Positions 16,451 to 50,661 are shown, counted from the stretch's first letter. The stretch: DNA of 57,107 bases from a virus (IMGVR_UViG_3300032046_000031:1-57107); one strand, 5' to 3'. The notes: a model not told the origin generated them from the letters alone. Made by a program: numbers and translations.

Positions 16451-16563
16451 TTTCCCCTTGCAATCTTACCTGTTGGAAGAAGAGGGGATGAAAGCTGATA
16501 CAAGGTGACAAAAATTGGCTCAAGTTTGTGAAAAGAAAAACTTATCTCATCCCAAAAAAAGAC

Positions 16564-16592
16564 TTGACAAGCATTTTAGAATGTGATACATT
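16564..16592 (+). promoter_or_regulatory. Sigma70-type promoter
   Basis: A-tract, then TTGACA-N17-TACATT with extended TG. Confidence 0.75.
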
Positions 16593-16695
16593 GAAAGCAT
16601 AATTGAATAGCGCAGACATTGAAAATTTCTTGTATGAGAAATGAAACATTCAAAGTCTGGCCAAAACACAAATTCTAAAATGAAAGGAAAGGAAA

Positions 16696-24114: not shown

Positions 24115-24585
24115 GTGAAAGATGAAAGCAAAGGAGGTGTAAAAATGCCAAGAGATGAAAGGGGTGAAGGATTGCCTCCTCCTTTGAGAGGAGCAAGAAC
24201 CTCCCCTGATATGCGAGAGGATGCTGGTGGTAGAGGTGGTGGTGGGGCTTATGGTAAGTTAGGGCAACTCGCAGGGATGGGGATGGAATCAGATACTGGA
24301 GGAGAGGAACAAGCAGCTCAGTTGGTAATATCAGCGGCCCAGCAACTCATGCAAGCAGCTCAACTCCATCCACAAATTCGACCCATGATTGAAAGGGCGT
24401 TAGCGGTGTTGAAGAGTGGTGTGGATGAGATGAGCGGAGGTGCAGGAGCAGGTGTTGGGGGAGAGGAAGAGATGGGTGGCTTATCTGAAGAGCCAGAAAA
24501 GAAACCCAAAAAGCGAAAGAGGATGCGACCTCCAACAGCCGAGGCACTAGAAGATGAATCAATGGGAGCAGGAGTGGGTTATTAA
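24115..24585 (+). CDS. Gly-rich low-complexity head-associated protein
   Basis: ORF between portal and scaffold; likely start MPRDE after AAGGAGG. Confidence 0.6.
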   Translation: MKDESKGGVKMPRDERGEGLPPPLRGARTSPDMREDAGGRGGGGAYGKLGQLAGMGMESDTGGEEQAAQLVISAAQQLMQAAQLHPQIRPMIERALAVLKSGVDEMSGGAGAGVGGEEEMGGLSEEPEKKPKKRKRMRPPTAEALEDESMGAGVGY

Positions 24586-24670
24586 GATCACAACTAACCC
24601 TCCCTCTTCTCTAAACCCCAACCCTTACTTAGATACAGAGGGAAAGGCGAGAGGAACAAAGGAGACAACC

Positions 24671-25483
24671 ATGATAAAAGAAAATTTTAATTGGAACCCA
24701 TTTACACTTCTCGGTGAAACGCCATCTGGTCTACGTTTCAAAACCGAGTTTGGCGAGGGCGATCCAGACTTCGCAACCAAGGAAGATCTGGAAATCATCA
24801 ATGCAAACCCACAACTTCTCAAAGCATATAAAGCAGTCATCTCTGGAGCAAACAAAAAGTTCCAGGAACGTGCTGAGAATGAAAAGAAACTCTTGAAAAC
24901 AATCGAATCCCTCCAATCACAAGTTGGTGAATTGGATGGGGGATTGCAGGAGTGGGAGAACATGTACAGCCAGCATAAAGATGCTATTGATGCTGCAGTG
25001 ATCAGCCGAACCAACCCAGACCTAACTAAAGGGAAGGGAAAAGGTGGGGAAGGAGATGAAGGAATGTGGGAGAAAAAATTCAACCAACTTGTTCAAAATA
25101 TCAACCAAGTGGGGACTCAGATTGAGAAGAGACTTATTCATCAAGGAAGAATGCTTTCCCTTTCAATGCAACTGAATGACCTTTATAGGAAGAATCCTCA
25201 AATGGATGGTGAGAAGGTTTTGGACGCTGCTTTGAAGGGTGGAGAGACAGATCTCACTCGTGCTTATAATGATGTCTACCATGATGAGATCCTCAACAAA
25301 GAGGTGGAGACACGACTAACACCAAGATTGGAGGAAGAGCTTCAGAAACGTCAGACTCAAGTTGAAACTGGTTCTGGAGCAACTCCACTCAAATTTGAAA
25401 TCCCAAAAGAGACCCCAAAAACTTGGGTTGATGCTGGACAAGAGTTTCTTAAAGAGAGAGCTGCAGAGGCAGCCAAGCCTTAA
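24671..25483 (+). CDS. Probable capsid scaffolding protein
   Basis: Coiled-coil, charged protein directly upstream of the MCP; start MIKENF after AAGGAG. Confidence 0.7.
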   Translation: MIKENFNWNPFTLLGETPSGLRFKTEFGEGDPDFATKEDLEIINANPQLLKAYKAVISGANKKFQERAENEKKLLKTIESLQSQVGELDGGLQEWENMYSQHKDAIDAAVISRTNPDLTKGKGKGGEGDEGMWEKKFNQLVQNINQVGTQIEKRLIHQGRMLSLSMQLNDLYRKNPQMDGEKVLDAALKGGETDLTRAYNDVYHDEILNKEVETRLTPRLEEELQKRQTQVETGSGATPLKFEIPKETPKTWVDAGQEFLKERAAEAAKP

Positions 25484-25571
25484 CCTTTAACTTTGATGGT
25501 TAATAAAGCAGAGGCATAAACCTTGAAAGCAACCTTTTTAGAAACGAGAACTCTAAGAAGGAGGAAATAAA

Positions 25572-27891
25572 ATGGCTTTAACTTATGATGATTTGGATGC
25601 TGCTGTTAAGAAAAAGTATCTTCCAAAGGCTATTGAGCAGATCTTTATAGGTAATGCTATCTTGACAAAACTCTTAGCCAAGAGTCAAGTTGTCTTTGAT
25701 AGTGGATCAAAGATTGCTCAGCCTGTCATTTATGGAAAGCTGGCAAGCGGTTCTTACTCAGGAATGGATACTTTTGATATTGGTTACAAGAAGATTGCAA
25801 CCTTGGCTGAGTGGAATTGGAAGAACCATCAACTCTTAAATTAGAGGATAGTGGCATGATTGATCTTGACTATGCTTATATTGCTGGATTTTTTGATGGA
25901 GAAGGAAGTATCTTGATTGCTAAGAGTGATCGATCTAAATTCAGACCAAATCCATCTCCTCTGTGGAGTTTAAGGATCACCATTTCAAATCAGCATCTTC
26001 CTGTACTTCAGTTGATGCATCAAGAGTTTGGTGGTGGTATGTATTCACAGACATCTGGAAAGAGTGGTGTTTATAGATTGATCCTTCAGAACAATCAAGC
26101 TGAGAATTTTCTCCGAAAAATTCAGTCTTACGTTAAGGTTAAAAATGATCAAGTAGAGTTGGCTCTTGCTTTTCAGGATCTCCGAAAGGGACGATCCTCA
26201 CGAGTTCGATTAAGTGAAGATGAGAAGACTCTATATGATTCAATCATGTTTGTGATGAGAAACCTTAATCATAAACTCAGTCAAGACTTTCTTGAAAAAC
26301 TGGGTGAATTCAGGGAAGGTCCGACTCATACCGTAAGGATGAAGGATAACCCTGAGCCAAGCTCCTTGAATGGTAAATATGTAGAGGAGAAGGTGCAGAG
26401 ACTAACGCTTGAGGAACCTACCAATAACAGCGACACGAGTGCCCAGCCCGTAAGGGATGAGATAGTCCGACCTTCATAGTAATATGAAGATGCTTTGGAT
26501 AAAGAGCCAAAGCGGTAACAAAGTGTATGTCAATGTCACCATCGCTGGTGACGATCTTGCTAAAACAGAAGGTGATGAGAAGATCATTGGTCTCCTTCAG
26601 GTTAGGATGGAAAATGCTACCCTCACCGCACATGATGACTTCGTGACCATGTTTGTTGGTGATGGGACAGGGAACTCATCTAAGGACTTCGATGGTGCTC
26701 TTAATGGATCTGATGATGGTACCATCTACGATTCCTATGGTGGAATCTCCAGAGCGAGTAATGTCTGGTGGAAGGGTTATGTGAACTCAACAGGTGGAGC
26801 AGCCACCCTTGACCTTATCAACCAAACCATCGGATCGACTACGATTGCTCAGAAGAAATGTGATCTTGCTTTCACCACACAGTCAATCTATGATAAGCTC
26901 TGGGCAAGGGTCCAACCTCAACAGAGATTTCTTGATAGTAAGAGCAAGCTTGCTGAGGTTGGTTTTACAGGGATTAATTTTAATGGTCATATGGAGATCA
27001 TCGTTGATAACCATATCCCTTCAGGTTACATGCTCGGTTTCAATACTGATTACTGGAAGTTGGTTCTCAATAGGAAGAGAAATTTCTATTGGACTGCGGA
27101 GAAGAACCCTGTTGATGCTGATGCCTTAATGAATTAGGGCCATGATGAGGAAACTTATCAATGAATAACACTGCTATATGCGAGGAACTCCTTAAACCTT
27201 CAGATACCCAGAATGGTAAAAATTCTGAAGCTGGGACAATTCGCAGGGAAGATATCCAATTAGAGTTAGATCTTGCTTGGCTTGCAGGTTTAATTGATGG
27301 AGAAGGTTGCTTAACTACTCATTTTTGGAATGATAAGAAAGCTCCTACCAGACCTAAAACTCTTATTTGCTCTTTGGTTGTTTCAAACTCAAATAAATTG
27401 GCTTTGGAAAAAGCACAGCAAATTTACGAATCTATTGGTGTAAAAAGCCATCTTATTATGGGTAAGAGAGAGAACAGAAAGTTCTGGGTTGGTAGTTTAT
27501 CTATCCGAGGGAATTATAATTTATCAACAATTATTCCTCGGTTGCTTCCTTATTTGGTAATAAAGAAGGATCAAGCAATCTCTCTATTGGCGATTGTGTA
27601 TAGAAAAGTAACACTTGGAGAAAAGACGAATGGTAAAAGAGGCTTATCTCTTACCTATGATGAATTTATTCTAACACAAATAAAAAAGCTGCATGAACTA
27701 AAGCAAGAAGGAAGATATGATATCCCCTCAACGACTATACGCAGTGCCCTTTTAGATGTGGAAGGTGATGATATAGTCTGCTCTGCATAGTAATATGCAG
27801 TTAACAAAAGGATGTCAGACAGATGTTAACGATGGGAAATCTCATTTGCATCCAACCAAGAACCAGTTTTATCCTTTCAGGGTTAACATAA
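25572..27891 (+). CDS. Major capsid protein, spliced from 3 exons (25572-25829, 26526-27126, 27812-27891; 312 aa)
   Basis: Joined exons give an uninterrupted frame: ...AEWNWKNH|YVNVTIAGDDL...PVDADA-Y-VRQMLTMGNLICIQPRTSFILSGLT*. Confidence 0.9.
25830..26525 (+). mobile_element. Group I intron 1 in the MCP gene
   Basis: P1 ccaU.Gugg; core AATTCAGGGAA / AACCCTGAGCCAAG / GTGCAGAGACTA / GAGATAGTCC; terminal G. Confidence 0.9.
25856..26479 (+). CDS. Intron-encoded LAGLIDADG homing endonuclease 1
   Basis: YAYIAGFFDGEGSI; ATG 25856 with SD GAGGA. Confidence 0.9.
   Translation: MIDLDYAYIAGFFDGEGSILIAKSDRSKFRPNPSPLWSLRITISNQHLPVLQLMHQEFGGGMYSQTSGKSGVYRLILQNNQAENFLRKIQSYVKVKNDQVELALAFQDLRKGRSSRVRLSEDEKTLYDSIMFVMRNLNHKLSQDFLEKLGEFREGPTHTVRMKDNPEPSSLNGKYVEEKVQRLTLEEPTNNSDTSAQPVRDEIVRPS
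27127..27811 (+). mobile_element. Group I intron 2 in the MCP gene
   Basis: P1 gccU.Gggc; P3 CACTGC/GCAGTG; ATGCGAGGAA / AATTCGCAGGGAAG; TCAACGACTA / GATATAGTCTG; terminal G. Confidence 0.9.
27161..27790 (+). CDS. Intron-encoded LAGLIDADG homing endonuclease 2
   Basis: LAWLAGLIDGEGCL; LLPYLVIKKDQA. Confidence 0.9.
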   Translation: MNNTAICEELLKPSDTQNGKNSEAGTIRREDIQLELDLAWLAGLIDGEGCLTTHFWNDKKAPTRPKTLICSLVVSNSNKLALEKAQQIYESIGVKSHLIMGKRENRKFWVGSLSIRGNYNLSTIIPRLLPYLVIKKDQAISLLAIVYRKVTLGEKTNGKRGLSLTYDEFILTQIKKLHELKQEGRYDIPSTTIRSALLDVEGDDIVCSA

Positions 27892-28046
27892 AGTGGAGAA
27901 TGTCCCCAGGGCGCTTTTCCTTTCCTCCCTGGCCTCCACCAGTCAAGCACCCCTGACTGGTAAAAGAAGAGGGGTGCAACATTTCAACTCCGCCTTCTGA
28001 GACAACAGAGGGATGAGGTTGATCAAAACCAAAGGAGGTAAATCAA

Positions 28047-28796
28047 ATGGCAGGCGAACAAGTTAGGACGATGAGAAGTCGGTTTGTGATTCCTAAACAA
28101 TCAATCTATGAGGAATCATCGGTAGCACTTCACTCTCTCGGAGATTGTTGTGCACTCCCAGGTGGGAGAATCTTTGCTTACTGCAAAAATGGTGCAGTAG
28201 CTTTGACAGATGGATTGGTGGTTCAGGGAGCAGTTCCTATTCCTCTCCACCTTAACCAGACGGTTGCTGCTACAGCAGCAATTGGTGCGACGAGGGTATC
28301 TCTTACCCCTGGAGCAACAGGAGCCGCTGCAAACTATTACGCAGAAGGATATCTTCACTTTAACGAGGCAGCACCAGAAGGAACCTATTATAAGGTGAAA
28401 TCCCATCTTGCAATCACTGCGAGTACTGCTTTTTGGGTTAACCTTTATGATCCTCTTTGGAAGGCTGCAACAATCACGACAAGTTATTGGACTCTTACTA
28501 AAGAGCCTCATGACTGTGTGGTTGTCCTACCATCTACAGGTACACCAACATCAAAAATCATTGGAGTCCCCATCATTGATGTTACTGCCAGTTATTACTT
28601 CTGGGCTCAGATCGCTGGCCCCTGTGCGGTGTTAGGACAGGGAACATTAGTTGTAGGAAACAGTGTTGGTCCTGGTGGTACTGCTGCAGGTTCGGTTGGT
28701 CCAAAAACTGCTTACACAGCACCAACCATTGGTGAGGTGATTCAGGTTAACGCTTCGACAGAGTTTTCTCTCATCTTCTTAAAAATTTCAGCATAA
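28047..28796 (+). CDS. Probable capsid decoration / structural protein
   Basis: After the MCP; GRIFAYCKNG and YYFWAQIAGP pattern; Ala/Thr/Gly-rich. Confidence 0.6.
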   Translation: MAGEQVRTMRSRFVIPKQSIYEESSVALHSLGDCCALPGGRIFAYCKNGAVALTDGLVVQGAVPIPLHLNQTVAATAAIGATRVSLTPGATGAAANYYAEGYLHFNEAAPEGTYYKVKSHLAITASTAFWVNLYDPLWKAATITTSYWTLTKEPHDCVVVLPSTGTPTSKIIGVPIIDVTASYYFWAQIAGPCAVLGQGTLVVGNSVGPGGTAAGSVGPKTAYTAPTIGEVIQVNASTEFSLIFLKISA

Positions 28797-32073: not shown

Positions 32074-33171
32074 ATGCGTGATCATGGTGGGGGTTGGATA
32101 AGGGTAGGAATTCCTCCAAAGGGAAATCTGTATAAGACAGGACAACTTACTTGTTATACCATTGGAGATGATGGGGACAGACAGACTGGTATTGCTAAGA
32201 GGTATCAGATCAATACTACAGGGCAATATGCAGGCACTGTTAATGTTGATGAACCTGAATATGCCGCTGCGACCATTGCCTTTGCTGCTACAACCCCAGG
32301 GACGATTACTGACACAGCGAATCTCCTGGCGACATTTCTGACTGGAGATACAATAAGAATTCGTGGATCAGGCCTGAATGATGGTATCTATACCATCTCA
32401 ACAGGTGGTGTTGCTGGGACAATCAGGACAACTGAGGCGACTGTGGCTGAGGCTGCTGGTGCATACATCACAATCTGTAAGAGGGCAACCCATTCTAGTA
32501 ATACCGTAATTGATCTCAATTCCAGAAAGAGATTGGAATGGGCCAGATACGTCCAGACTGGCAAGGTCGGGCTTGCCTCAGATGGGAAATTAAATTGGTA
32601 TGATGCAACAAAATGCTATACGTTGCATCCTGCCGCTGCTGATTTGGCGATGGTTGCAGGGAATATACTGAGGATAGAGGGCAGTGATGAATCCTCTCGA
32701 TACTTTGCAGGACAGGTTTTGGTCAATAGTGGATTTGCAAGTGCAGTCAACAATTTACCTGGATTAATGGTCAAATCGGTTAGTTTCACGGGTGGCAACA
32801 CTGACATTGTAGTCGATCCAGGCAAACAGACGCTAATTGCTGAGGTGGCAGGTGGATCGAGAACTATCAAGATCGTCTGCCAATCCATTTGGTCTTATTT
32901 GTCGGGAATAAATGTTGCACTGTTAGGGGGATATGGAGATTGGGGGATTCCCAATGATCTGCAACTTGTAAATCTAAGAGATATGGAGCAACCCACCGCA
33001 GCGCCCGATGCGATAGCATTTCCAGGTTGGCCGACCAGTGATTATTTCTGGTCGTCTACTACGCAGCCCAATTACCTTGTTGGCGCCATGATGGTGAATT
33101 TCGAGAGGGGCAGCTTGGTCAACGACGCTAAGACTCTTAACCATTTCGTGCCTTTGGTCAGAGGGGGTTGA
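32074..33171 (+). CDS. Putative receptor-binding protein with a C-terminal DUF1566 (Lcl / C-type lectin-like) domain
   Basis: KTGQ...GDDG, VIDLN..LEW, GYGDWGIPN..L, YFWSSTT and terminal LVRGG. Confidence 0.8.
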   Translation: MRDHGGGWIRVGIPPKGNLYKTGQLTCYTIGDDGDRQTGIAKRYQINTTGQYAGTVNVDEPEYAAATIAFAATTPGTITDTANLLATFLTGDTIRIRGSGLNDGIYTISTGGVAGTIRTTEATVAEAAGAYITICKRATHSSNTVIDLNSRKRLEWARYVQTGKVGLASDGKLNWYDATKCYTLHPAAADLAMVAGNILRIEGSDESSRYFAGQVLVNSGFASAVNNLPGLMVKSVSFTGGNTDIVVDPGKQTLIAEVAGGSRTIKIVCQSIWSYLSGINVALLGGYGDWGIPNDLQLVNLRDMEQPTAAPDAIAFPGWPTSDYFWSSTTQPNYLVGAMMVNFERGSLVNDAKTLNHFVPLVRGG

Positions 33172-36610: not shown

Positions 36611-37444
36611 ATGAACCTTTTAGAGATCAGAACTGAAATCAGACGAATCCTTGCAGAGACTACCGCTGCCTCATCTTATTTCTCTGACGCTGACATTAAT
36701 AGATTTATCAACGATGGCATCAAGCATATGTGCATTGAGGCAGGGGTTTATGAGAAGACTCTTTCCATCACGGTTGCAACCACCATTGCTACCTATACCC
36801 TTCCTCTTGAATTTCTCTCAATGAAAACTATCCTCAATCTTAATGGAATCCCACTTGATCCCATTGAAACTTTTCAGGTTGGAGGAACTTATAAGATTAC
36901 AGGTTTACCTCTAAATTATTATATGACTCAAGCAGCAGCCACCCTGCCAATCTGGGTTAAAGCAACTGCCTATGTTATATTCCCTGCAACTTGCAGTATT
37001 GCCAAAACGTACTGTGTCCCTATCACCGCTAATGGGTATTCTTATGAATGTGTAACTGCAGGGACATCTCATGCCTCAACCGAACCAGTCTGGACAACTG
37101 TTGTAGGGAGTACCCAACCAGTAGATGGTACAGTGTATTGGAAATGCCGAGAGTTATTCTCTACCCTTTTCACCCTCAATCTCTATGACACTCCAACCAC
37201 TGCAGGTGGAGGAGCTGGGACCTACACCCTAATCTATTCAGCCTTAGATGAAGGTCTCTACGTTGACACCGACACCCCAAATTTCCCTTGGAATAAACAT
37301 CAGTATCTTGTTTCTTATGGATGTTTTAAGTGTGGGATGAAAGCAAAAGATCAAGCCTTAGCAATGGCTTTTCTTACAGAGTACAGTTCGGGATTGGGAT
37401 TAAAGATGGGTGGTGCAGGAGGTGAAGGTGGCCCCCAAAGTTGA
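36611..37444 (+). CDS. Second adaptor-like (DUF6682-like) protein with an inserted carbohydrate-binding-like module
   Basis: MNLLEIRTEIRRIL...FSDADINRFINDG; YECVTAGTS...EPVW...DGTVYW insert. Confidence 0.6.
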   Translation: MNLLEIRTEIRRILAETTAASSYFSDADINRFINDGIKHMCIEAGVYEKTLSITVATTIATYTLPLEFLSMKTILNLNGIPLDPIETFQVGGTYKITGLPLNYYMTQAAATLPIWVKATAYVIFPATCSIAKTYCVPITANGYSYECVTAGTSHASTEPVWTTVVGSTQPVDGTVYWKCRELFSTLFTLNLYDTPTTAGGGAGTYTLIYSALDEGLYVDTDTPNFPWNKHQYLVSYGCFKCGMKAKDQALAMAFLTEYSSGLGLKMGGAGGEGGPQS

Positions 37445-39935
37445 ACCTCGCAAGACTAAACAGATCCTTGGCATGAACTCCTATGACGATTCTACTCTTC
37501 TCCCTGATGGGGTTGTCAAGCTCATCCAAAATATGCTCCCAGAGAAGACCTCTCTTGAGACCCGTACAGGGTGGGCTCATTATCGAACGGGAATCTCTTG
37601 CACCGCTGATCACACCACCGATGTCTTTACCTCAGCCTCTCATGGATTGAATGATGGGGATAGAATCTACCTTGCAGCAACAACCCTTCCTGCTGGGATA
37701 GCCTCAACTACCCTCTATTATATAATTTCTTCAGCAACTAATACTTTTCAGGTTTCTCTCACCCTCGGAGGTGGTGCTGTCACCTTTACCTCAAATGGAT
37801 CAGGTATAACCTGGATAAGAATGTTGACTGACTCAGCTGGCATCTTTGGGATGGGTTATTATGCTCCAACTACAACAATCGACCTTGATCTCGTTGTCTC
37901 CTATGGGAAACTTTACTCTGGAAATGGTGGAACCCTCACCGAGCGATACAGTGGACTCTCCGCTAATACGCTCTGCTCCATTGCTCAATTTGATGACAAA
38001 GCTTTAATCATAGATCAAGTTAATAAGATGAGAGTATATAAGTATGGAGAGACAACCTACGCTGCTGGAATCGATTCTCCAAAAGAATATAAACTGATTG
38101 AAGATTTTGAGTTAGTCTCAGATTGGGCTCTTGTAAATGGTACTGCTACTGCTAACGCAGTCAACTTTGTTTATGGGACTCAATGCATCACCTTCCTAAC
38201 AACTGCTGGTTTGGTAATGACAGCAGTGAAAACATTTGCATCAAAGAATCTTACTACCTTTGATGATGGTTCAACCTCTGGCACCAATGATTATATCAGT
38301 CTCTTTCTAATCCGAGGTGTTTATGCTAACTTTGATTCCTGTACCTTAGAGATTGGTGATGGTGGAAGTACCACCTGCTATCGAATTGTTCTCTCAAGTT
38401 TGACTGAATGGACCGCAACCTCTGCTCCTGATGTTGCATTTGAGTTTAAGATTAGAAAAAGTGCTTTTACAACAGTTGGTGCTCCAAACTGGAATGCAAT
38501 TACAGGTGTGAAAATTTCCATTGATGCTGCTGCAGCAGTTCAAGCTCAAATCATTGTTGACTATCTTAGGTTGGAGAAAGCTGGCCCTACCACAGCAGAT
38601 TCAACAGTGGCTGGACTTCCATCTGGAACATACTACTACCGAGTTACCTTTGTTACAAATGATGGATGGGAGAGTGATCCTTCTGTGATCTCTGATGCTG
38701 TTGTTGTGGTTTTAGAGAAAGTTACTCTGACAAATATCCCTGTCCCTGGTTCTGCTCGGATTGCAAGCAAGAAGATTTACAGGTTGGGAGGGACATCTGC
38801 TGAGTGGAGACTACTTACCACCCTCTACGATCGAACTACCACTACCTACACCGATAACACCGCAGATGCCAATCTTGGAGATCTCCAAGACATCATCGAG
38901 GGACAACCTTACATCCCAAAATGTCTTACCATCCATGATAAGACCGTAATAATTGCAAATCTTACCTCTCCTGATGGAACTGCCTATCCCTGTGGGGTGA
39001 TGATCTCAGAAGAATTAAGTGTTGATATCTTTGATCACGATAACTTCTTTGAGATTGAAGCAAACTTTGGAGGAAAGATTAATTGGATCCTCGATGCTAT
39101 GGACTTTACCTACGTTGGGAAATCAAACTCAATTTGGAAGTTTGATCCAAATGATCTTACCATCCCTCCTCGAAACCTCTCTCGTATCTATGGAGGAGTT
39201 GGACCTCTTGCTGTTACTGTAGGAGAGAATGAATTTTACTTTCTGGATGGTGCAAAGAGGGTGATTAGCTTCAATGGATCATTCTTTGAGAACATTGGAG
39301 AGGTTTCTCCCAATCGTCTCTCATCTGTGCAAAACTATCTCGATCTTATCCCTGATGCCTGCATCCAAACCTGTTGGATGCTATGCCATGATAATTTTCT
39401 TTTGGTTGGTATTCCACAGACAGGGGATACGTCTCCAACTCTCATCCTTGCCTACTACATCCCAAAGCAGATTTGGATTGTCATCTCTGGGTGGCCAGCG
39501 AGATGTGGGTACTCAGCAAAACTTGCAGGAATTAACACCTTACATCTTGGTCATGCAACCACTGGATTTGTTTATAATTGTTTCTCAGGGGATGATGATG
39601 CTGGAGCAGCCATCACCAATGGGATTCAAACTTCAGATTGGGACTTTGGATCGCCAGAGATTAGAAAAGATTATGCAAAATTCTTTCTCTTTGCAAAGAA
39701 ATTAACTTCGACAAGTGTAACTCTTACTGTTGAACCTTATCTTGATACAGTAGATTCAACAAAAGATATGACTCTTACCATTGATTCTACTGAACATAAG
39801 AGGTTTGGAGATGATATTTCTGTTCCAGAATTAGGATATGCAGGAACATTTCTTGGTTTGCGGATATTTGCAACAACAAGATGGGCATTCAGGTCGCTGT
39901 TTGAATATGCAAGGACGATCGGTATACCTCTATGA
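37410..39935 (+). CDS. Tail nozzle / tubular protein (P22 gp10- or T7 gp12-like) with inserted domains
   Basis: Size, position, C-terminal QTSDWDFGSPEIRKDY motif and YYYRVTFV...ESDPS insert. Confidence 0.6.
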   Translation: MVQEVKVAPKVEPRKTKQILGMNSYDDSTLLPDGVVKLIQNMLPEKTSLETRTGWAHYRTGISCTADHTTDVFTSASHGLNDGDRIYLAATTLPAGIASTTLYYIISSATNTFQVSLTLGGGAVTFTSNGSGITWIRMLTDSAGIFGMGYYAPTTTIDLDLVVSYGKLYSGNGGTLTERYSGLSANTLCSIAQFDDKALIIDQVNKMRVYKYGETTYAAGIDSPKEYKLIEDFELVSDWALVNGTATANAVNFVYGTQCITFLTTAGLVMTAVKTFASKNLTTFDDGSTSGTNDYISLFLIRGVYANFDSCTLEIGDGGSTTCYRIVLSSLTEWTATSAPDVAFEFKIRKSAFTTVGAPNWNAITGVKISIDAAAAVQAQIIVDYLRLEKAGPTTADSTVAGLPSGTYYYRVTFVTNDGWESDPSVISDAVVVVLEKVTLTNIPVPGSARIASKKIYRLGGTSAEWRLLTTLYDRTTTTYTDNTADANLGDLQDIIEGQPYIPKCLTIHDKTVIIANLTSPDGTAYPCGVMISEELSVDIFDHDNFFEIEANFGGKINWILDAMDFTYVGKSNSIWKFDPNDLTIPPRNLSRIYGGVGPLAVTVGENEFYFLDGAKRVISFNGSFFENIGEVSPNRLSSVQNYLDLIPDACIQTCWMLCHDNFLLVGIPQTGDTSPTLILAYYIPKQIWIVISGWPARCGYSAKLAGINTLHLGHATTGFVYNCFSGDDDAGAAITNGIQTSDWDFGSPEIRKDYAKFFLFAKKLTSTSVTLTVEPYLDTVDSTKDMTLTIDSTEHKRFGDDISVPELGYAGTFLGLRIFATTRWAFRSLFEYARTIGIPL

Positions 39936-40489
39936 AACCCGTCCTTAAAGTCATAATCCCTGATAAACCTGCTGAAGCAACCGTCAATGCTCTCTTTGAG
40001 GATATCTATAACAAGATTGGAAGTCTCCAAAAATGGGTGAGTGAAGGGACAGCTTTAGATCGCCCTCACATCGATTCTTCTTCAATAGGGGCTGAGCTTA
40101 ACTATGCTTTCATCTACCTTCATTGCCTTCTTGTTAGTGAGGCTCTCCTTTATGTCTGGAGGTATCGAAAGCGAGGTACCTATAAATGGTCAACCTGGTT
40201 TAGTGTTGAGAATGAGACTAAGATTCCCAATCTCTATTTTGCAACAGAATATGAGTTAGGGGTGTTAGCGATTGGGCCTTCGCTGGTAAAATCAGAATGG
40301 TCTTACACCATCATAGTGACAAGTGCTGCTGCTCCAGTCCCTTCACAGGTTACTGGAGTAGTCTTGACCAATCTTACAATGTTCGTTGATCCTATAACTG
40401 GTGAGCAGATGGCAAGAGTCCAAGTTGATTGGACTGATAATGCAACGAGTGAGTTGGTTGATCTTTATGAGGTGATCTGGACAGAGTAA
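39932..40489 (+). CDS. Fibronectin type III-containing tail protein (ends in half a domain)
   Basis: IPNLYFATEYELGVLA...SEWS; PSQVTGV...VQVDWTD...YEVIW. Confidence 0.6.
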   Translation: MKPVLKVIIPDKPAEATVNALFEDIYNKIGSLQKWVSEGTALDRPHIDSSSIGAELNYAFIYLHCLLVSEALLYVWRYRKRGTYKWSTWFSVENETKIPNLYFATEYELGVLAIGPSLVKSEWSYTIIVTSAAAPVPSQVTGVVLTNLTMFVDPITGEQMARVQVDWTDNATSELVDLYEVIWTE

Positions 40490-40492
40490 TCT

Positions 40493-41263
40493 ATGCCATA
40501 TAAAAGTTTTGCTTGCAATTCTGGTGGGACAGGAGCAATGATAAAATCAACCTATAAGGGGATTCTTTGCTATCCTTTTACCGATCCAATGATCTATCGT
40601 GGGATGATTGGATGGTATAAGGTTGATGAGGGAAGTGGAACAATCCTTTATAACTCTGCACCAGCAAGTGCGAGTAAGCTCCCAGACCTTAATATTGTTA
40701 CTCCAGGTTCAAATTTCTGGGGACTCTATTCTGGATTTGGATATTGGGATGGGGTTGCAACGAGGACCTATAAAATATTTTCCTTTGATCCCTTGGGAAC
40801 TGGACCAAGAACCGTAATGATCTTTGGAAGGGAGAAGCATGGGCTTCAAGATACAAAAATTGCTACTCAGTATTATCTTGCTCCTACTGATCCAGAGGTC
40901 TTTGATTATTACAGTGCACTTGGTGGGATAGTGGTTGTTAAACAACCCAACTGGGCAGGCATGAGTATCAGTCTTACTCCAGGATCAGATTATTATGATA
41001 GACCTTTTGTCAGTGTTTATACCCTTACTGATGTATTTCTGAGCACTTTGCAGATTAAATATACAGGAGGAACTTGGAAGTCTACTACTCCAAGCACTTA
41101 TAATCCAGGTCCAGGACTGACAGACATTTATATTGGAGGTCGATCAAGCCCACCTTATATATGGAAAGGTATCCTTGGTGATTTCATGATCTTTAATGTC
41201 TTACTAACAACAGCTGAAATAGATCAGATTGTAAGTTCTCGTCATTCTCGATGGAACATATAA
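40493..41263 (+). CDS. LamG/concanavalin-like domain tail protein
   Basis: GWYKVDEGSGTILYN and IGG...WKGILGDFMIFNVLLTTAEI. Confidence 0.65.
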   Translation: MPYKSFACNSGGTGAMIKSTYKGILCYPFTDPMIYRGMIGWYKVDEGSGTILYNSAPASASKLPDLNIVTPGSNFWGLYSGFGYWDGVATRTYKIFSFDPLGTGPRTVMIFGREKHGLQDTKIATQYYLAPTDPEVFDYYSALGGIVVVKQPNWAGMSISLTPGSDYYDRPFVSVYTLTDVFLSTLQIKYTGGTWKSTTPSTYNPGPGLTDIYIGGRSSPPYIWKGILGDFMIFNVLLTTAEIDQIVSSRHSRWNI

Positions 41264-41264
41264 G

Positions 41265-42107
41265 ATGGGAACTCGAATTATTGAAGCTTTAAAAGCAAGC
41301 ACCCTTTATACCATTCAGGTAAGAGCAAAAAATGTCTTTGGAAAGTGGGGGGAGTTTAGTGCAGCAGAAACTACCACCACCGCTAAGGATACCACCGTTC
41401 CTGCCACCCCAGCTGGCCAAACCATCCTTGTCGCCACCCCAAACTTCTTCATCATAGGATGGACAGCGTCAGCATCAGGGCTTGGAGTTGAGGGATATAA
41501 TATCTATGTCTTTACATCAAACACCCCTGCCTCTGCCAAGATTATCAAGAGAGCAGGTTACAACACAACGAGGATCATCGTTAATCAGGGAGAGGCCTCT
41601 GAGGATGCTTCCATCACCATTGCTGCTGGAACAGCTTACTGGTTTTGGATTACCTCTGTTGATCAAAGTGGAAACGAGTCAGCTAAGTCAACCTTAGTAA
41701 CTGGTACATTAGGGACTGCAGGGACAGGAACTGATCATGGAGCTCTTACAGGATTACTTGATGATGATCACACCCAATATCGCCTTGAGAGTGCAGACCA
41801 TACTCATCAGACTACAGGAGCCGAGGCAGGAAAGATTGATCATGGATTGGCCTTAGATGGCTTATTGGATGATGACCATACTCAGTATCAAAAGGAATCA
41901 GAGAAGGATGCAGTAAGTGGATATGCTGGTCTTAATGCTTCAAGTCGAACAACAAAGGGAGTTGATACTACTGATGATCTCATCATTGACCTTGCAGCAA
42001 AAGGATTAGTATTAAAGGATACCCAAGGAACCCCACACTATTGGAGAGTAACAATAGATGATATAGGGTCTTTAGTTACAACAGATTTAGGAACGGTGAA
42101 ACCATAA
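41265..42107 (+). CDS. Fn3-containing tail fibre protein with two DHG-x-L-x-GLLDDDHTQY repeats
   Basis: LKASTLYTIQVRAKN, DTTVPATP and YWFWITSVDQSGNES. Confidence 0.65.
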   Translation: MGTRIIEALKASTLYTIQVRAKNVFGKWGEFSAAETTTTAKDTTVPATPAGQTILVATPNFFIIGWTASASGLGVEGYNIYVFTSNTPASAKIIKRAGYNTTRIIVNQGEASEDASITIAAGTAYWFWITSVDQSGNESAKSTLVTGTLGTAGTGTDHGALTGLLDDDHTQYRLESADHTHQTTGAEAGKIDHGLALDGLLDDDHTQYQKESEKDAVSGYAGLNASSRTTKGVDTTDDLIIDLAAKGLVLKDTQGTPHYWRVTIDDIGSLVTTDLGTVKP

Positions 42108-42205: not shown

Positions 42206-42628
42206 ATGCAAGAGATCACCTATTTAGAATCCGATCAGGACTTCGAACATCTCATCCCCCTTATAAGGGTATTCTCAGAGAGAGCCAAAGTCCCTTACTG
42301 GCAACAGTTGAATGAGGTTACAGCCTCCTTCACCAATCCAAATATCTTCGTGATTATTGGGAAGGATGAAGGAAGAATCGTTGGCTATATTTGTGGGAGT
42401 TTATTAAACCAGAGAGAATTTTACATCTCTCAGCTTTTCTCTCCTTTACAAGCTGTTACTCCATTGCTCCTTGATTTTCTTGAAAAGGAGATGAGAGAGA
42501 GAAATGTTAAGAAACTCTTTGGTCTTAGCAGACCCGACCCTCGTGTCTTTGAGAAATATGGATTTAAGACTGAGAGAGTCCTTATGTCTAAACAGTTGGA
42601 GAAGGAGAAAAAGGAGGAATCAAAATGA
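42206..42628 (+). CDS. GNAT-fold acetyltransferase-like protein
   Basis: RIVGYICG...FYISQLF...FEKYGFK; occupies the usual position before ejection proteins. Confidence 0.6.
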   Translation: MQEITYLESDQDFEHLIPLIRVFSERAKVPYWQQLNEVTASFTNPNIFVIIGKDEGRIVGYICGSLLNQREFYISQLFSPLQAVTPLLLDFLEKEMRERNVKKLFGLSRPDPRVFEKYGFKTERVLMSKQLEKEKKEESK

Positions 42629-45595: not shown

Positions 45596-47800
45596 ATGTC
45601 ACCTTTATCTTGGCTCAAAGCTCCATTTAGCCTTGCAGGTAGGGTAGGGAAAGCAGTGGAGATGGCTCCAGGGGTGATTAGTATGATTCACCCTGAGCAG
45701 ATCCTTGCTAAGTCTCCAATCACGAAGAAACTCTTTGCTCTTACTGTTGATGAGGAACGAGCAGCCAATCTTCTCAGACGAAAGTTTACTGGGGAAGTTG
45801 ATCGTATTGTTAAAAAATATGGGATCAATACTGAGGAAAGAGCAAATCAATTTCTTAACACTCTTGAGTTTCATAACTATAAAGGTCGTCTCCCTGATGC
45901 TCAAGAGATGTCTCAGATGCCTAAATGGACTTTTAATGCAGCAGCTGAGCATTTAAGAAGCATTGAAGATCCAATCTGGCTGGAGTATAATAAGCTGAAA
46001 GATCCCAAGACCTATGAAGGGATTCTTAAAAAGTATGATCTCATTGCTGATCCTACTACTATGGTCAAACCTGAGATTGGCTATGTCTCAGGTCACTTCA
46101 CTCACTTCCCTGTGAAATCTTACACCAACTTCCTAACTGATGAGATCAACCGCACAGAGTCAATGCTCAAAGGTATCCCTGTTGAAGATCCAAACTTCTT
46201 CAACTATAAAGCACATGTAGCAGAAATGAAAAAGAGTTTAGATAAATATTCCAACATCGATACCTCCCTCAATGCTGTTCGTTTCAAACAACTCCCAAAA
46301 GGAGGAGTCTTTGGCCCTTTTGATGAAGCACGTCAGACTCAAAAGATGTGGGGCTATCGCAAAGACTACCAAGATGTCATGCACGAATACGTTGATAAGG
46401 CAGTTAGGAAGATCATGCTTGATCGTTACATGCCAGTTGCTAATGAGTTGGTCAAAGCTGAACCAAATGCTGCTCTCCGCCAGTATGCCTTTGATTACGT
46501 CACTGCTCAGAGAGGTGCCCTTACATCTAAGAGTAGAATCTTCTTCAATGAGTCCCTCGCTCAACTCTTCCCCGATCCTGAATCTGGCTACCGTAACATC
46601 GCTAAGGGAGTTGACTTTGCTACCCGTTTTCAATACCTCTCAAAGATTGGTCTAAGTTGGTTCCGCTTTCCATTTGTGAATGCAACTCAGCCCATTCTTA
46701 CCCTCTACCCAATGGTGGGAGCAAAGAATCTTCTCCTTGCTTACGGGAAAGATATTACCAACCCTAAACTTTGGCAGGAAGCAAAGGATGTGGGTGTTAT
46801 CTTTGAGATGCAACTAAGAAAGGGATTGGCTGAAGCTCTTGGGAGAGCCCCAAGAGAGAGTTGGTTGTGGAAAACTGAGAAGGTTATAAGTTGGCCAGCT
46901 TCCATCTCTGAGGAATTAAACAGAGTTGTAACCTACGCTGCTGGAAAGAGACAAGCAGCAGAGATGGGATTGCAAGGGCAAGAAGTGGTGGATCATGCAA
47001 TCAAACTTGTCAACCGTACCCAATTCCTTTACAGTAAGGCTGGGATGCCTTTGATCATGAGTAAGTCTCCAGCTGGAAGGTTGCTCTTTCAATTCCGTAC
47101 CTTCACCTCAAACTACATCAACTTTCTCACCCAACTTTGGAGAGAAGGGAATTACGCTGGTTTCGCCAGAGCCTTAGGATCACTTGGAGCACTCTCTGGA
47201 ACCGCTGCCATCCCATTTGGACTCTGGGAGGGGACACGGAAAGGCTTACTCAGAAATGCTGGGATCGATATTGGAGAGTTTAATCCTGTTGAGACCCTTA
47301 CTGAAAGAGCAGGGTTCTCCCCTCCACTCGATCTTGGCCAATCCCTTGAACCCTTTAATATCCCAGGTGACGTCACTCAGATGTTTGGCCCTTCCATTGG
47401 CCCTGTTGCAAAACTTCTCTTTGATTGGATGAGAAAGCCTGAGGAAGGGAAAGAGCATCTCAGACGATTTGGTGAATCTTATGCTGGACCTCCTATTGTT
47501 AGAGCAGTTAAGGGGTTGGGATTTCCAACTGTGACCACAGAACCAACCAAGACTATGCCTAAAGGAAGGGTGATTGGACAGAGATCTCTTGCTGAAGCAA
47601 TGTTCATGCGAGGACCTCTTGAATCAACCAGACGAAAGTATATGACATTGATGGCAAATGCAATGGCAGGGGGGAGGGAGGATCTTTCTCGTCAATATAT
47701 GCAAAGGATGAGACAGATGGGAGTTCAATTTAGTGAACAGGATTTTGGGCAGGTGAGACAGATGGCAAGTAAGTTGAAAGGGGTACCAGCTGTACAATGA
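45596..47800 (+). CDS. Large internal virion / ejection protein
   Basis: AIKLVNRTQFLYSK...LLFQFRTF motif typical of large ejection/polyvalent proteins. Confidence 0.65.
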   Translation: MSPLSWLKAPFSLAGRVGKAVEMAPGVISMIHPEQILAKSPITKKLFALTVDEERAANLLRRKFTGEVDRIVKKYGINTEERANQFLNTLEFHNYKGRLPDAQEMSQMPKWTFNAAAEHLRSIEDPIWLEYNKLKDPKTYEGILKKYDLIADPTTMVKPEIGYVSGHFTHFPVKSYTNFLTDEINRTESMLKGIPVEDPNFFNYKAHVAEMKKSLDKYSNIDTSLNAVRFKQLPKGGVFGPFDEARQTQKMWGYRKDYQDVMHEYVDKAVRKIMLDRYMPVANELVKAEPNAALRQYAFDYVTAQRGALTSKSRIFFNESLAQLFPDPESGYRNIAKGVDFATRFQYLSKIGLSWFRFPFVNATQPILTLYPMVGAKNLLLAYGKDITNPKLWQEAKDVGVIFEMQLRKGLAEALGRAPRESWLWKTEKVISWPASISEELNRVVTYAAGKRQAAEMGLQGQEVVDHAIKLVNRTQFLYSKAGMPLIMSKSPAGRLLFQFRTFTSNYINFLTQLWREGNYAGFARALGSLGALSGTAAIPFGLWEGTRKGLLRNAGIDIGEFNPVETLTERAGFSPPLDLGQSLEPFNIPGDVTQMFGPSIGPVAKLLFDWMRKPEEGKEHLRRFGESYAGPPIVRAVKGLGFPTVTTEPTKTMPKGRVIGQRSLAEAMFMRGPLESTRRKYMTLMANAMAGGREDLSRQYMQRMRQMGVQFSEQDFGQVRQMASKLKGVPAVQ

Positions 47801-48690
47801 TCTACCCTGCTGACTCCCATCTTGAACTCCTTCTCTGTCCTCCAACCTTTCTCTCAACGGAGATCATCAACAACCGTTGGATGAAGAAGATGTCTCCAGA
47901 GGAGAGGCAGGTCAACCGTGATAAAGCTGTCTCTCAATTTCACCTTATGTATAGCTTATTCAGTCAGGATGCTATGGTTTATCTCCTCCCACCAAAGAAT
48001 GGTTTGCAAGACCAAGTTTACATCACAAATGCAGGGATGTGTCTCCCGCATCTTGAAAAGACTGTCATCCTTGCAAATTTCAAAGCTGAAGGACGACCTG
48101 GGGAGGAAGATGAGTTAGCTTGGTTTATCTCAAAGATGGGATATGCAACCTTCAAGCCTCCTTTCTTCTTTGAAGGAGAGGCAGAGTTAAAGTGGGTGAG
48201 GGACAACATCTACATTGGAGGGTATGGGATTAGGACACATCTCAAAGCTTTAGAATGGATCGAAGCTAACTTTGGTGCAAGAATTATCAAGATTGAAGAG
48301 ACCGACCCCCTCACCTACCATCTTGACTGTAACATCTTCCCCCTTTCTAATACAAAGATCATCTTTAATGAAAATCTGGTGAAAGATCCACAGTTAAGGG
48401 AGATGGAACAGATTGCTGAGCTTATCCCTGTGACTAAGAAGCAGGCTCAATTCTCCATTACAAATAATCTGAGAGTTGGCTCCATTGTGTATTCAGCTAC
48501 AGGGATCAAAGAGATGAAACTATCTGATGAGGAATACCCATTTGAGAAGGATAAGGATGAGAAATTAGAACAGATTTGTAGAGCTGCTGGGTTGGAGTTG
48601 ATCTTTATCAACCTATCAGAGATGTATAAATCTGGTGCAGCTTTAAGCTGTTGTATATTTCACCTTAACTATACGAACTTTTTTGATTGA
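47797..48690 (+). CDS. Amidinotransferase / arginine deiminase-dihydrolase (pentein) family enzyme
   Basis: LQDQVYITNAG, FEGEAE, YHLDC and YKSGAALSCC (catalytic Cys). Confidence 0.85.
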   Translation: MIYPADSHLELLLCPPTFLSTEIINNRWMKKMSPEERQVNRDKAVSQFHLMYSLFSQDAMVYLLPPKNGLQDQVYITNAGMCLPHLEKTVILANFKAEGRPGEEDELAWFISKMGYATFKPPFFFEGEAELKWVRDNIYIGGYGIRTHLKALEWIEANFGARIIKIEETDPLTYHLDCNIFPLSNTKIIFNENLVKDPQLREMEQIAELIPVTKKQAQFSITNNLRVGSIVYSATGIKEMKLSDEEYPFEKDKDEKLEQICRAAGLELIFINLSEMYKSGAALSCCIFHLNYTNFFD

Positions 48691-49414
48691 TATGCTACCT
48701 TTACAAGACTTTCTCCAACAATCTGAAACACAGCAAATTAAGAGAGAGCTCCCTCTCAAACTCTACGAGGTTGATTTCAATCGTGATCCCAACCGATCAA
48801 TCTACCATGACCAGTCTACCTTCCTCTCCCCTGCAGATGGTGTAATCGTCTATGCTAAGGTTGTTCACCCTAAAGAGAACATGATCGAAGTTAAAGGGAT
48901 GAATTATACTATTGAAACCCTCATGCAAGAGACCATGAAGTACCCATGTTTGATCATTGGCATCTTCATGACCGCTCTTGACGTTCACATCAATCGCATC
49001 CCTACTAATGGCTTCATCAAACACACAAAACTCCCTCCTTTAAAGGTAGCTAACCTCTCAATGAGGGAGGTTGAAAAGGATATCCTAAAGAGGCTCAATC
49101 TTGATTATTCGCACATGGAGTATATGCTCTTCAATGAGAGAGTTAAGAATCGTATCTATGCCCCCAATCTCAAACAACCTTATTACATCTTACAAATCGC
49201 TGACTTCGAGGTGGATGTCATCGCTCACTTTGGAGACTCTGATGATTATTACACACAGGGAGAAAGGTTTAGTGTGGTCAGGATGGGAAGTCAGGTTGAC
49301 CTTATTATCCCCTTTATCAACCCTAAACTGCAATTTGAATCTCTCCTTAATAACTGCCTTCTCTATCATGTTGAAGCAGGAAAGGATAGGTTGGTAAGAA
49401 TAAATGGAATTTGA
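48683..49414 (+). CDS. psd: Phosphatidylserine decarboxylase-family pyruvoyl proenzyme
   Basis: FNRDPNR, SPADG, IGIFMTALDVHINRIP and RMGSQVD (G-S autocleavage site). Confidence 0.85.
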   Translation: MIDMLPLQDFLQQSETQQIKRELPLKLYEVDFNRDPNRSIYHDQSTFLSPADGVIVYAKVVHPKENMIEVKGMNYTIETLMQETMKYPCLIIGIFMTALDVHINRIPTNGFIKHTKLPPLKVANLSMREVEKDILKRLNLDYSHMEYMLFNERVKNRIYAPNLKQPYYILQIADFEVDVIAHFGDSDDYYTQGERFSVVRMGSQVDLIIPFINPKLQFESLLNNCLLYHVEAGKDRLVRINGI

Positions 49415-50291
49415 CGATAGGTTAACCACCATCGTTTATTTTGCTGAGACCCTCCCCTCTCGCTATCCAGAGGTGTTTCTCCCAGCAAAGACTAACCTTG
49501 AATCAAATGGGATTAAGGTTAAACTGATCAAAGGAATAGAAAACATTTGGTGTCGAGATTATCTGCCAATTCAGGTGGGTGACCACTTTGTGAAATTCAT
49601 CTATGCCGATTCCAACTTTGAACATCGAAAGCCCCCAAAGATATCTTGTTGGGATGGATTTGCTGTTCCCTCTATTATCTCACCAATTATCTTAGATGGT
49701 GGTAACGTTGTAAGAGGATTTGGAAAGACCTTCATCACAGAGAAAGTGCTTAGAGACAACGTAAGGGTGAAACCTCGTGCAATTATTCACAAACTTTCAT
49801 CCCTTCTTGACTCAGAGATAATCCTCCTCCCAATCGAACCTGGAGACAATCTTGGTCACTCAGATGGGATTGTTAAGTTTATGGATGAGAAGACCATCCT
49901 CATCAATGACTATTCAAGCATCTTTGAAAAGGACAAGAAGTTCATTGAGTATGATGAGAAACTTAGAAAGCTTCTCTCTAAGAAGGGGTTTGAAATTGAG
50001 ACTCTTCCCTTTGCCTATGGTGACTGGGATTGGAATATGTCAGAGAAAGAGTTTCGTAAGCAATATCCTTTCGCTGACGATTTCAACCCAGGATTTGGGT
50101 ATTATATCAATTTCTTATTGGTAAGAGGGGTAATCCTTCTTCCTACGATGGGAATCAAAAAAGACTTTGATGTAGTGAGGAAGATGAAATTTCTCTATCC
50201 ACATTACAATATTGTTGCAATTGATTGCTCCCATCTTTCATTTGAGGGTGGGCTGATGAATTGCATCTCATGGAATATAATGGAGGTGTAA
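49404..50291 (+). CDS. aguA: Agmatine deiminase / Porphyromonas-type peptidylarginine deiminase family
   Basis: IWCRDY, LDGGN, GHSDG, YINFL and GGLMNCIS. Confidence 0.88.
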   Translation: MEFDDRLTTIVYFAETLPSRYPEVFLPAKTNLESNGIKVKLIKGIENIWCRDYLPIQVGDHFVKFIYADSNFEHRKPPKISCWDGFAVPSIISPIILDGGNVVRGFGKTFITEKVLRDNVRVKPRAIIHKLSSLLDSEIILLPIEPGDNLGHSDGIVKFMDEKTILINDYSSIFEKDKKFIEYDEKLRKLLSKKGFEIETLPFAYGDWDWNMSEKEFRKQYPFADDFNPGFGYYINFLLVRGVILLPTMGIKKDFDVVRKMKFLYPHYNIVAIDCSHLSFEGGLMNCISWNIMEV

Positions 50292-50292
50292 A

Positions 50293-50661
50293 ATGTTACC
50301 ATTTTTTCAAGCTGTCTTAACAGGGTTACAAGGTCTTGGTGGAGGGATCGCAAAAGGGATTGGATCAAGTTTAGGGTTGGATCTTGCAAAGAATATCCCA
50401 AACGTTGCAACCATAAAAAGCCCTGTCTCTGGGAAGCTCTTACAGGTAGCAACTCTCCCAGTCACTTCTACCTGGGAGAAACTTGGAACGATGTTAGGGA
50501 CACAGGCGATGGGCAGTCAAGCACCCTCTCTCCCCTCCGCTCCTTCTTTAGACACATCAACCAGAGTCCAAGCACCGTCTCAAAGAGCTCTAACAGGTGG
50601 GTTTCAGAGAGGGAAGAAGTCTCAGTTGGAGACACTTATCGAACAACTGGCAAGGAGGTAG
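50293..50661 (+). CDS. Gly/Ser-rich hypothetical (pilot-like) protein
   Basis: SD GGAGGT; composition. Confidence 0.55.
   Translation: MLPFFQAVLTGLQGLGGGIAKGIGSSLGLDLAKNIPNVATIKSPVSGKLLQVATLPVTSTWEKLGTMLGTQAMGSQAPSLPSAPSLDTSTRVQAPSQRALTGGFQRGKKSQLETLIEQLARR

Follow-up and report, generated by a model that had tools for sequence, protein, structure and literature searches.

What would a virus gain from a pentein, a pyruvoyl-type decarboxylase and an agmatine-deiminase-like protein encoded together at the end of its structural genes? The question is raised by IMGVR_UViG_3300032046_000031:1-57107, a virus record of 57,107 bp that is complete and carries direct repeats at its termini (the whole stretch is referred to below as the window), in which three tightly packed plus-strand open reading frames (ORFs), P0001, P0002 and P0003, close a long block of structural genes. 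An earlier reading of the window from its sequence (the original prediction) had placed three ORFs with intact catalytic motifs at 47797-50291 and had proposed a route from arginine to putrescine or other polyamines. The ORFs were found at these positions on the plus strand, the catalytic residues of all three were conserved in family alignments, and the route was kept as the best reading of the cassette. With a probability of roughly 0.55, the three genes are read here as a soluble module for the conversion of arginine to putrescine (or a very close diamine or ureido-amine) that is co-transcribed with the late structural genes. Behind this reading stand family membership, fold, intact catalytic residues, gene linkage and the solubility indicated by hydropathy; from these the substrates, the order of steps, expression late in infection and the purpose are proposed.

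P0001 was compared with profile libraries, with Protein Data Bank (PDB) chains and, as a structural model, with known folds. It matched the Pfam family PF19420 (DDAH_eukar) at 9.6e-13 (48.5 bits, cut-off 23) and PHROG 12759, of unknown function, and stayed below the NCBIfam cut-offs for DDAH-Mtb (NF045659; 104.6 bits, cut-off 300), Arg_dihydro (NF052232; 87.8 bits, cut-off 450) and NF052231 (87.0 bits, cut-off 1025). Its closest solved relatives by sequence were AgrE/Alr4995 (1.4e-18) and ArgZ/Sll1336 (3e-17). Foldseek, run with the model (pLDDT 89.9), returned the ArgZ/AgrE dihydrolase domain at the top (TMq 0.81-0.82, E 2e-22) and DDAH second (0.70, 8e-15), followed by amidinotransferases and arginine deiminases. 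The likeness to ArgZ/AgrE that had been proposed for this protein was thus borne out by sequence and by fold, and the DQVYITNAG stretch on which it had rested aligns to PDLVFTANAG of AgrE.

Counted along the pairwise sequence alignment, D72, N78, R100, R146, H175 and D177 of P0001 correspond to D65, N71, R90, R139, H168 and D170 of AgrE, and these residues, together with C285, were invariant in 25 phage and bacterial members of the family. The catalytic set of P0001 comprises Cys285, His175 and Asp177 plus Asp72 and Asn78. Asn71, the counterpart of N78, is presumably tied to the second hydrolysis step of ArgZ; the title of PDB 6juz indicates that an intermediate was trapped in the crystallised N71S mutant of ArgZ. 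In the related arginine deiminase (ADI) and DDAH enzymes the substrate carboxylate is held by two arginines, according to a passage of PMC11659421, and by analogy R100 and R146 would be the carboxylate-holding pair of P0001. The roles of these residues were drawn from PDB titles, the NnhA paper and general background. P0001 keeps equivalents of Cys264, His168, Asp170, Asp65, Asn71, Arg90 and Arg139 of ArgZ (Sll1336) and AgrE (Alr4995); they carry a fused ornithine cyclodeaminase-like domain, which P0001, a separate protein of about 300 aa, lacks, and the partner to which P0001 is fixed is a decarboxylase in place of a cyclodeaminase. From its sequence it is predicted to be a guanidino-group dihydrolase. 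Its closest database relatives, the protein clusters P0245 and P0246, have a recorded length of 260 aa and lack the N-terminal strand and the NNxWM motif, neither of which varies within the family; it seems that gene callers set their start too late, probably on account of overlap with the upstream gene.

P0002 matched PF02666 (PS_Dcarbxylase) at 1.5e-23 (83.9 bits, cut-off 22) and PHROG 12670, of unknown function. Against the NCBIfam models for phosphatidylserine decarboxylase (PSD) and archaetidylserine decarboxylase (ASD), in which equivalog cut-offs span 183-377 bits (PRK05305.x and TIGR00164 are among the models), it scored below cut-off in 15 of 15, the best score being 77.3 bits against a cut-off of 183. 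Numbered on the 243-aa form, D52, D100, H102, G202 and S203 were invariant in all 26 of the 26 sequences aligned, and Gly202-Ser203 is predicted to be the self-cleavage site that would give a pyruvoyl decarboxylase. The PADG, D-x-H and G-S motifs are common to P0002 and the PSD and ASD enzymes (PRK05305, TIGR00164), from which P0002 differs in falling under all curated cut-offs, in having no membrane segment and in being tied to arginine-type hydrolases. The maximum Kyte-Doolittle mean over 19 residues was 1.0-1.5 across the three cassette proteins, with no segment at transmembrane level, and in P0002 the maximum of 1.37 is located in a core strand, in agreement with the original remark that the PSD-like protein has no obvious membrane anchor.

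Foldseek, run with the P0002 model (pLDDT 84.9), returned E. coli PSD as the best match (7e-7), followed by PsiD (3e-4) and Ao-ADC1 (2e-2). PsiD is a tryptophan decarboxylase, and passages of PMC12904898 describe Ao-ADC1 as a PSD-family enzyme that self-cleaves at Gly-Ser, decarboxylates free arginine and forms a pyruvoyl-agmatine Schiff base. P0002 shares with Ao-ADC1 (Aspergillus oryzae, PDB 9JER/9JF5) and PsiD the PF02666 fold, the Gly-Ser site and predicted solubility, and action on a free amino acid, as in those two enzymes, is proposed for it. The similarity is distant (11-17% identity, at the Foldseek E values given above), Ao-ADC1 and PsiD are much longer (about 380-480 aa) and have extra N-terminal regions, and P0002, unlike them, descends from the short bacterial/archaeal PSD type. 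With its solubility, its scores under the PSD cut-offs, its linkage to a pentein gene (below) and the precedent of Ao-ADC1 and PsiD, P0002 looks like a soluble, repurposed amino-acid decarboxylase, as had been suggested.

P0003 matched PF04371 (PAD_porph) at 1e-19 (71.4 bits, cut-off 25), reached 31.7 bits against TIGR03380 (aguA; cut-off 381.8) and had no PHROG match. It covers positions 71-319 of the 321 of the PF04371 profile, its N-terminus being about 50-70 residues shorter. All of its PDB sequence matches were AguA/AIH-type chains, and C287, H152, D154 and D148 of P0003 align with C366, H224, D226 and D220 of the Medicago enzyme MtAIH, in which Asp220 binds the terminal amine of agmatine (as described in a passage of PMC6447857). 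Within the P0003 family (25 sequences) C287, H152 and D154 were invariant and D148 was present in at least 90%; the catalytic set comprises Cys287, His152, Asp154 and Asp52 plus Asp148. P0003 thus shares with AguA/AIH (Medicago AIH, PDB 6NIB) the family, the catalytic Cys/His/Asp and the agmatine-amine Asp, and its subfamily differs in being short at the N-terminus, in missing the TIGR03380 cut-off and in being associated with the P0001/P0002 pair.

Linkage of the P0001-like and P0002-like genes was examined in viruses and bacteria. A single-protein scan of IMG/VR with P0002 alone gave no match and an alignment-based scan was required, which returned 233 P0002 relatives among 292 candidate stretches in IMG/VR and 476 among 522 in GTDB contigs (one genome per species); the best 80 of the 233 and the best 80 of the 476 were taken for locus analysis. 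In 76 of the 80 viral loci tblastn placed a pentein gene immediately upstream of the PSD-like one, and in the other four the PSD-like gene lies no more than 220 nt from a contig end. In 73 of the 80 bacterial loci the two genes were found on one strand with a gap of at most 294 nt, the PSD-like gene first in 70 and the pentein gene first in 3; the seven misses were two cut contigs, three Streptomyces loci with nonribosomal peptide synthetase (NRPS) genes next to the PSD-like gene, and two loci without a pentein gene within 8 kb. Overall, the linkage of a PSD-like gene to an arginine-type pentein gene was seen in about 150 loci, and the pair is widespread in phages and bacteria. Long ORFs that extend over both genes in eight high-GC bacterial loci were considered as PSD-pentein fusions and were rejected as over-extended ORFs, because in BLASTP only their C-terminal parts matched P0001 and nothing matched P0002.

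Most of the viral loci belong to one uncultured T4-like group from aquatic metagenomes, in which the pair has a gp23-type capsid gene on one side (64 loci) and phoH on the other (72 loci); the closest capsid from a cultured phage belongs to Flavobacterium phage immuto (55% identity). Both genes were also found in cultured phages, namely in 39-40 records of Campylobacter Fletchervirus-type phages, annotated as PSD and amidinotransferase, and in 6 records of Bacteroides DAC/SJC phages; in the Bacteroides thetaiotaomicron phage DAC19, the one Bacteroides region examined, they are the adjacent genes DAC19_243 and DAC19_244, both annotated as hypothetical proteins. The original prediction had known no such combination from phages, and had held that it would be undermined if the genes never co-occurred in other genomes. 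Repeated co-occurrence was found, of the pair in IMG/VR, Campylobacter and Bacteroides phages and of the trio in at least 16 IMG/VR records.

These trio records were obtained by scanning IMG/VR with an alignment of P0003, which gave 25 loci, 19 of them with a P0003-like gene of at least 37% identity. All three genes were adjacent in 14 of the 19, in the order P1-P2-P3 of the window in 8 and in the order P1-P3-P2 in 6. The pair lay elsewhere in the same record in two, two loci were cut at a contig end, and one was a 30%-complete fragment with P1 and P3 and without a PSD-like gene; the P0003-like gene therefore co-occurs with the pair in 16 of the 19 records (the 19 loci include two near-duplicate pairs, and three of them are the same contigs as loci L004, L006 and L007). 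Six distant P0003-like genes (26-32% identity) stood alone within their loci, as judged on the loci and not on whole records. The trio has stayed linked although its gene order changed, which is good evidence for the three enzymes acting on connected substrates. A midpoint-rooted tree was built from 44 PSD-like sequences (16 from trio loci, 10 from the 76 pair-only viral loci and 18 from the 80 bacterial loci). Bacterial sequences formed one group (93/93), T4-like phage sequences formed one group, and trio phages fell into two deep, well-supported clades, from which it follows that the phage genes are old and diverse and not recent captures.

To describe the bacterial neighbourhood, neighbour ORFs were clustered by BLAST and one representative per cluster was scanned against Pfam. 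Beside the bacterial pair were found a MATE pump (29 loci), a fused ABC exporter (22 loci, directly downstream in about 19), canonical full-length AguA (315 bits; 4 loci), a pyridoxal phosphate-dependent ornithine/arginine decarboxylase (3 loci), a PotD-type solute-binding protein (6 Verrucomicrobiales loci), N-acetylglutamate synthase (4 loci) and NRPS genes (5 loci). Carriers of the pair together with an exporter operon include Xenorhabdus and Saccharothrix strains. This context fits the arginine/polyamine chemistry of a small exported cation. In the three Streptomyces loci mentioned above (L112, L114 and L122, at about 8001-16700) the PSD-like gene stands without a pentein gene and is followed by large NRPS genes carrying condensation, AMP-binding and PP-binding domains, an arrangement that suggests a natural-product use of the decarboxylase.

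In the module as proposed, the conserved core would be a two-enzyme unit of P0001 and P0002. P0001 would act as a cysteine hydrolase that strips the guanidino group, releasing two NH3 and CO2, and P0002, after cutting itself at Gly202-Ser203 to make its pyruvoyl cofactor, would decarboxylate a free basic alpha-amino acid. Two orders of steps were weighed. In the order tentatively preferred, itself less likely than not, P0001 would convert arginine to ornithine and P0002 ornithine to putrescine, while P0003 would convert agmatine, either host-made or formed by P0002 from arginine as a side product, to N-carbamoylputrescine. This order fits the ArgZ likeness and the carboxylate-type arginines of P0001, and fits the pair alone sufficing in five T4-like records without a gene of the AguA, N-carbamoylputrescine amidohydrolase (NCPAH) or S-adenosylmethionine decarboxylase (AdoMetDC) families. 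In the alternative order, which we consider only slightly less likely, P0002 would convert arginine to agmatine, P0003 would convert agmatine to N-carbamoylputrescine, and P0001 would finish on agmatine or N-carbamoylputrescine. The alternative fits the obligate linkage of the agmatine-deiminase-like P0003, the precedent of Ao-ADC1, and the rule of thumb, given in a passage of PMC10407285, that a decarboxylase clustered with AguA is an arginine decarboxylase (ADC). It requires a pentein activity without precedent; the phrase 'agmatine dihydrolase' occurred once in a full-text literature search, in a genome announcement.

Polyamines neutralise packaged DNA and support translation, and the purpose of the module would be the supply of polyamines for DNA packaging and replication, with the release of nitrogen from arginine as a by-product. 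Late expression is suggested by the place of the cassette, which closes the late genes, and by the adjacency of the pair to gp23 among the T4-like phages; such a timing would suit DNA packaging.

Several points weigh against an arginine-to-putrescine module. P0002 is matched best, in sequence and in fold, by genuine lipid PSDs, and the match to Ao-ADC1 is weak, so that nothing links P0002 specifically to arginine or ornithine. Putrescine biosynthesis does not usually have dedicated exporters at its side, as the bacterial pairs do; in the Campylobacter phages a distance of about 40 kb separates the two genes; and the five T4-like records that carry the pair and are near-complete contain no PF04371, PF00795 or PF02675 gene. 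With ornithine as the product of P0001, one would not expect P0003 to be obligately linked to the pair; with agmatine as the product of P0002, one would not expect the carboxylate-type R100 and R146 of P0001 to be invariant. The window genome, moreover, encodes no NCPAH (PF00795) and no spermidine synthase (PF01564), and for this reason we commit to the pathway and not to the order of its steps.

The exporters and the NRPS-linked Streptomyces variants keep in play a further explanation, itself unlikely, in which the product is a different small cation, exported in bacteria by the MATE or ABC pump and made late in infection by phages, where it could, for example, be used for signalling, to modify the envelope as an amine or to counter defences. 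An exporter lies directly beside the pair in about 50 of the 80 bacterial loci, and the three Streptomyces loci, in which NRPS genes follow a PSD-like gene without a pentein, would also be accommodated. Against it, the conserved residues of P0001 and P0003 match those of arginine- and agmatine-acting enzymes, and canonical AguA, an ornithine/arginine decarboxylase or a PotD-like protein is found near the pair in 13 loci.

The chemistry of an arginine-to-putrescine module could also be retained with a different selective benefit, namely arginine catabolism that yields two ammonia per arginine for phage nucleotide synthesis, the decarboxylase and deiminase serving to dispose of or pull the products. 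ArgZ and AgrE, the nearest relatives of P0001, serve nitrogen mobilisation in cyanobacteria, and in the majority of its viral carriers, which are T4-like phages known from aquatic metagenomes and not from culture, the pair is found between gp23 and phoH. Such a benefit leaves unexplained both the locking of decarboxylase to hydrolase in about 150 loci and the bacterial exporter beside the pair, and we hold it to be somewhat less likely again than a different exported cation.

Covalent modification of DNA bases with an amine, as in putrescinyl-thymine phages, had been named in the original prediction as a possible purpose and is judged improbable here. The genes are phage-borne and likely late-expressed, and both occur in Campylobacter Fletchervirus phages, which are known for modified DNA. 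In known hypermodification pathways, however, an enzyme of the thymidylate-synthase family supplies the hydroxymethyl pyrimidine, and a six-frame search of the complete window genome with PF00303 returned no gene of this family (the control was positive in 10 of 14 genomes). No kinase or transferase of such a pathway was found among the approximately 60 ORFs scanned, and the pair is equally common in bacteria, where it adjoins exporters.

Remodelling of host lipids had likewise been raised, and would make P0002 a true PSD acting on host membranes and the penteins unrelated neighbours. Its best family and fold matches are indeed PSD and ASD models and E. coli PSD, and marine virus surveys class viral 'psd' under lipid metabolism (in passages of PMC11360552). 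The absence of any hydrophobic or transmembrane segment from P0002, its scores of no more than 77 bits against cut-offs of 183-377, and a near-universal linkage to penteins in two gene orders, for which lipid chemistry offers no rationale, argue against this, and it is placed marginally lower than base modification. Citrullination of host or virion proteins by the penteins, possibly after delivery in the virion, is very improbable and, like lipid remodelling, gained no positive support: P0003 does belong to the PAD_porph family and the cassette does follow a large ORF that is probably a virion protein (in seven other loci it follows giant ORFs of 1285-1640 aa), but among solved structures P0003 is closest to agmatine deiminases, whose amine-binding Asp is kept, P0001 resembles free-arginine enzymes, and the decarboxylase partner would have no role.

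Virus-encoded polyamine enzymes have been charted only recently, and with other protein folds. In concept the cassette is like the known viral pathways (ADC, AIH, NCPAH and HSS of PBCV-1, and the AdoMetDC-derived pyruvoyl ADC and ornithine decarboxylase (ODC) of phages), from which it differs in having a PSD fold in place of the AdoMetDC fold and a pentein dihydrolase in place of a nitrilase-type NCPAH. Other pyruvoyl ADC and ODC enzymes are already known in phages (passages of PMC9992855 and PMC10407285); the main text of PMC9992855 contains none of the terms 'phosphatidylserine', 'pentein', 'amidinotransferase', Campylobacter or Bacteroides, although its supplements might list such genes. 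The genome paper of phage CP220 notes no more than a putative glycine amidinotransferase (in a passage of PMC2853527), and an ocean catalogue of auxiliary metabolic genes treats viral psd as a lipid gene (in a passage of PMC11360552). A full-text literature search, with supplements outside its scope, returned no paper on the PSD-like/pentein pair. In databases the two genes carry the labels 'phosphatidylserine decarboxylase' and 'amidinotransferase' or 'dimethylargininase', and in PHROGs both are of unknown function; such labels lead to wrong lipid-metabolism and creatine-type readings of viral auxiliary genes.

The positions of the cassette genes and of the surrounding features of the window are collected in the following table.

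Table 1. Features of the window in the structural block and around the cassette
Feature	Position	Strand	Remarks
Terminase	18174		structural block
Portal	20925		structural block
SU10-type adaptor domain	36611-37444		4.2e-15
841-aa ORF	37410-39935		matches internal virion protein, esterase/lipase and amidase PHROGs
Tail-fibre-like proteins	39932-42107		structural block
Context ORF (P0005), 734 aa	45596..47800	+	PLxRFG-type domain; probably a virion protein; stop overlaps P0001 start
P0001, 297 aa	47797..48690	+	stand-alone ArgZ/AgrE-like pentein, predicted guanidino-group dihydrolase
P0002, 240 aa from ATG 48692 (243 aa from TTG 48683)	48692..49414	+	soluble PSD-family proenzyme
P0003, 295 aa	49404..50291	+	short agmatine-deiminase-like pentein, PAD_porph family
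122-aa basic protein	50293-50661		directly 3' of the cassette; pI 10.7; Gly/Ser/Ala/Pro-rich

The junctions of the cassette genes are tight, and a pattern scan of the cassette found no convincing terminator inside it. The ATGA overlap between the upstream 734-aa ORF and P0001 that had been described is present. Of the overlaps claimed among the three cassette ORFs, that between P0002 and P0003 stands (11 nt), and that between P0001 and P0002 does not: the PSD-like gene probably starts at ATG 48692, one base past the P0001 stop, and not at TTG 48683, because its homologues and the ESM Atlas record begin there, and with this start the two genes abut without overlap. The 122-aa protein had no family match in Pfam, PHROGs or NCBIfam.

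The upstream 734-aa ORF had been called an ejection protein, which it may plausibly be. The ORF does sit at the end of the structural module, but its PLxRFG 'tail-700' domain scored 55.8 bits against a cut-off of 100, and the PHROGs that it matches are giant ones of unknown function. No relative of it was found by tblastn in the other pair or trio loci. In seven IMG/VR loci (L170, L173, L176-L179 and L181) the trio lies directly downstream of a giant ORF of 1285-1640 aa, a position that echoes that of the 734-aa ORF in the window. A PLxRFG domain shared by these giant ORFs was considered and rejected, as it was found in none of the five that were scanned and they showed no similarity to the 734-aa ORF.

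The window phage has no close cultured relative, its best terminase match being 30% identical, and a search with the head-protein-like ORF at 32074-33171 (the sole query from the capsid module) gave no match; the phage is probably a podovirus with SU10-like tail architecture. An ORF at 26484-27137 matched a 329-position major head protein PHROG over positions 92-304 only (2.1e-27), and LAGLIDADG endonuclease ORFs lie on either side of it (25811-26479 and 27161-27790). Because this partial match lies between two such ORFs, the major capsid gene in this region (25811-27790, also 24554-28796) seems to be interrupted by two insertions that carry endonuclease genes and would be introns or free-standing homing genes. 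In the tail module, a GNAT-like acetyltransferase ORF of 140 aa (42206-42628) matched an acetyltransferase PHROG at 6.7e-6 and Pfam Acetyltransf_1 at 21.0 bits (cut-off 20.7); a tie to polyamine acetylation is conceivable. On the minus strand, 3002-4414 encodes a 470-aa fusion of a ParB-like nuclease/partition domain and a DNA methyltransferase domain, which suggests methylation as the DNA modification of the window phage.

The cassette is not unique to the window phage, and its two-gene core is a widespread, ancient and unstudied module. It is possible, at somewhat less than an even chance, that the pair is an unrecognised, self-contained two-enzyme pathway, the product of which would be either putrescine, made in a way that bypasses the known ADC or ODC, agmatinase and NCPAH, or a new exported cation. 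If this were so, at least one activity would be unprecedented, for example a PSD-fold ornithine decarboxylase or a pentein acting on agmatine or N-carbamoylputrescine, and phages would deploy the pair late in infection. Identifying the product of the pair would correct the present annotations and could add a new diamine route or a new exported metabolite.

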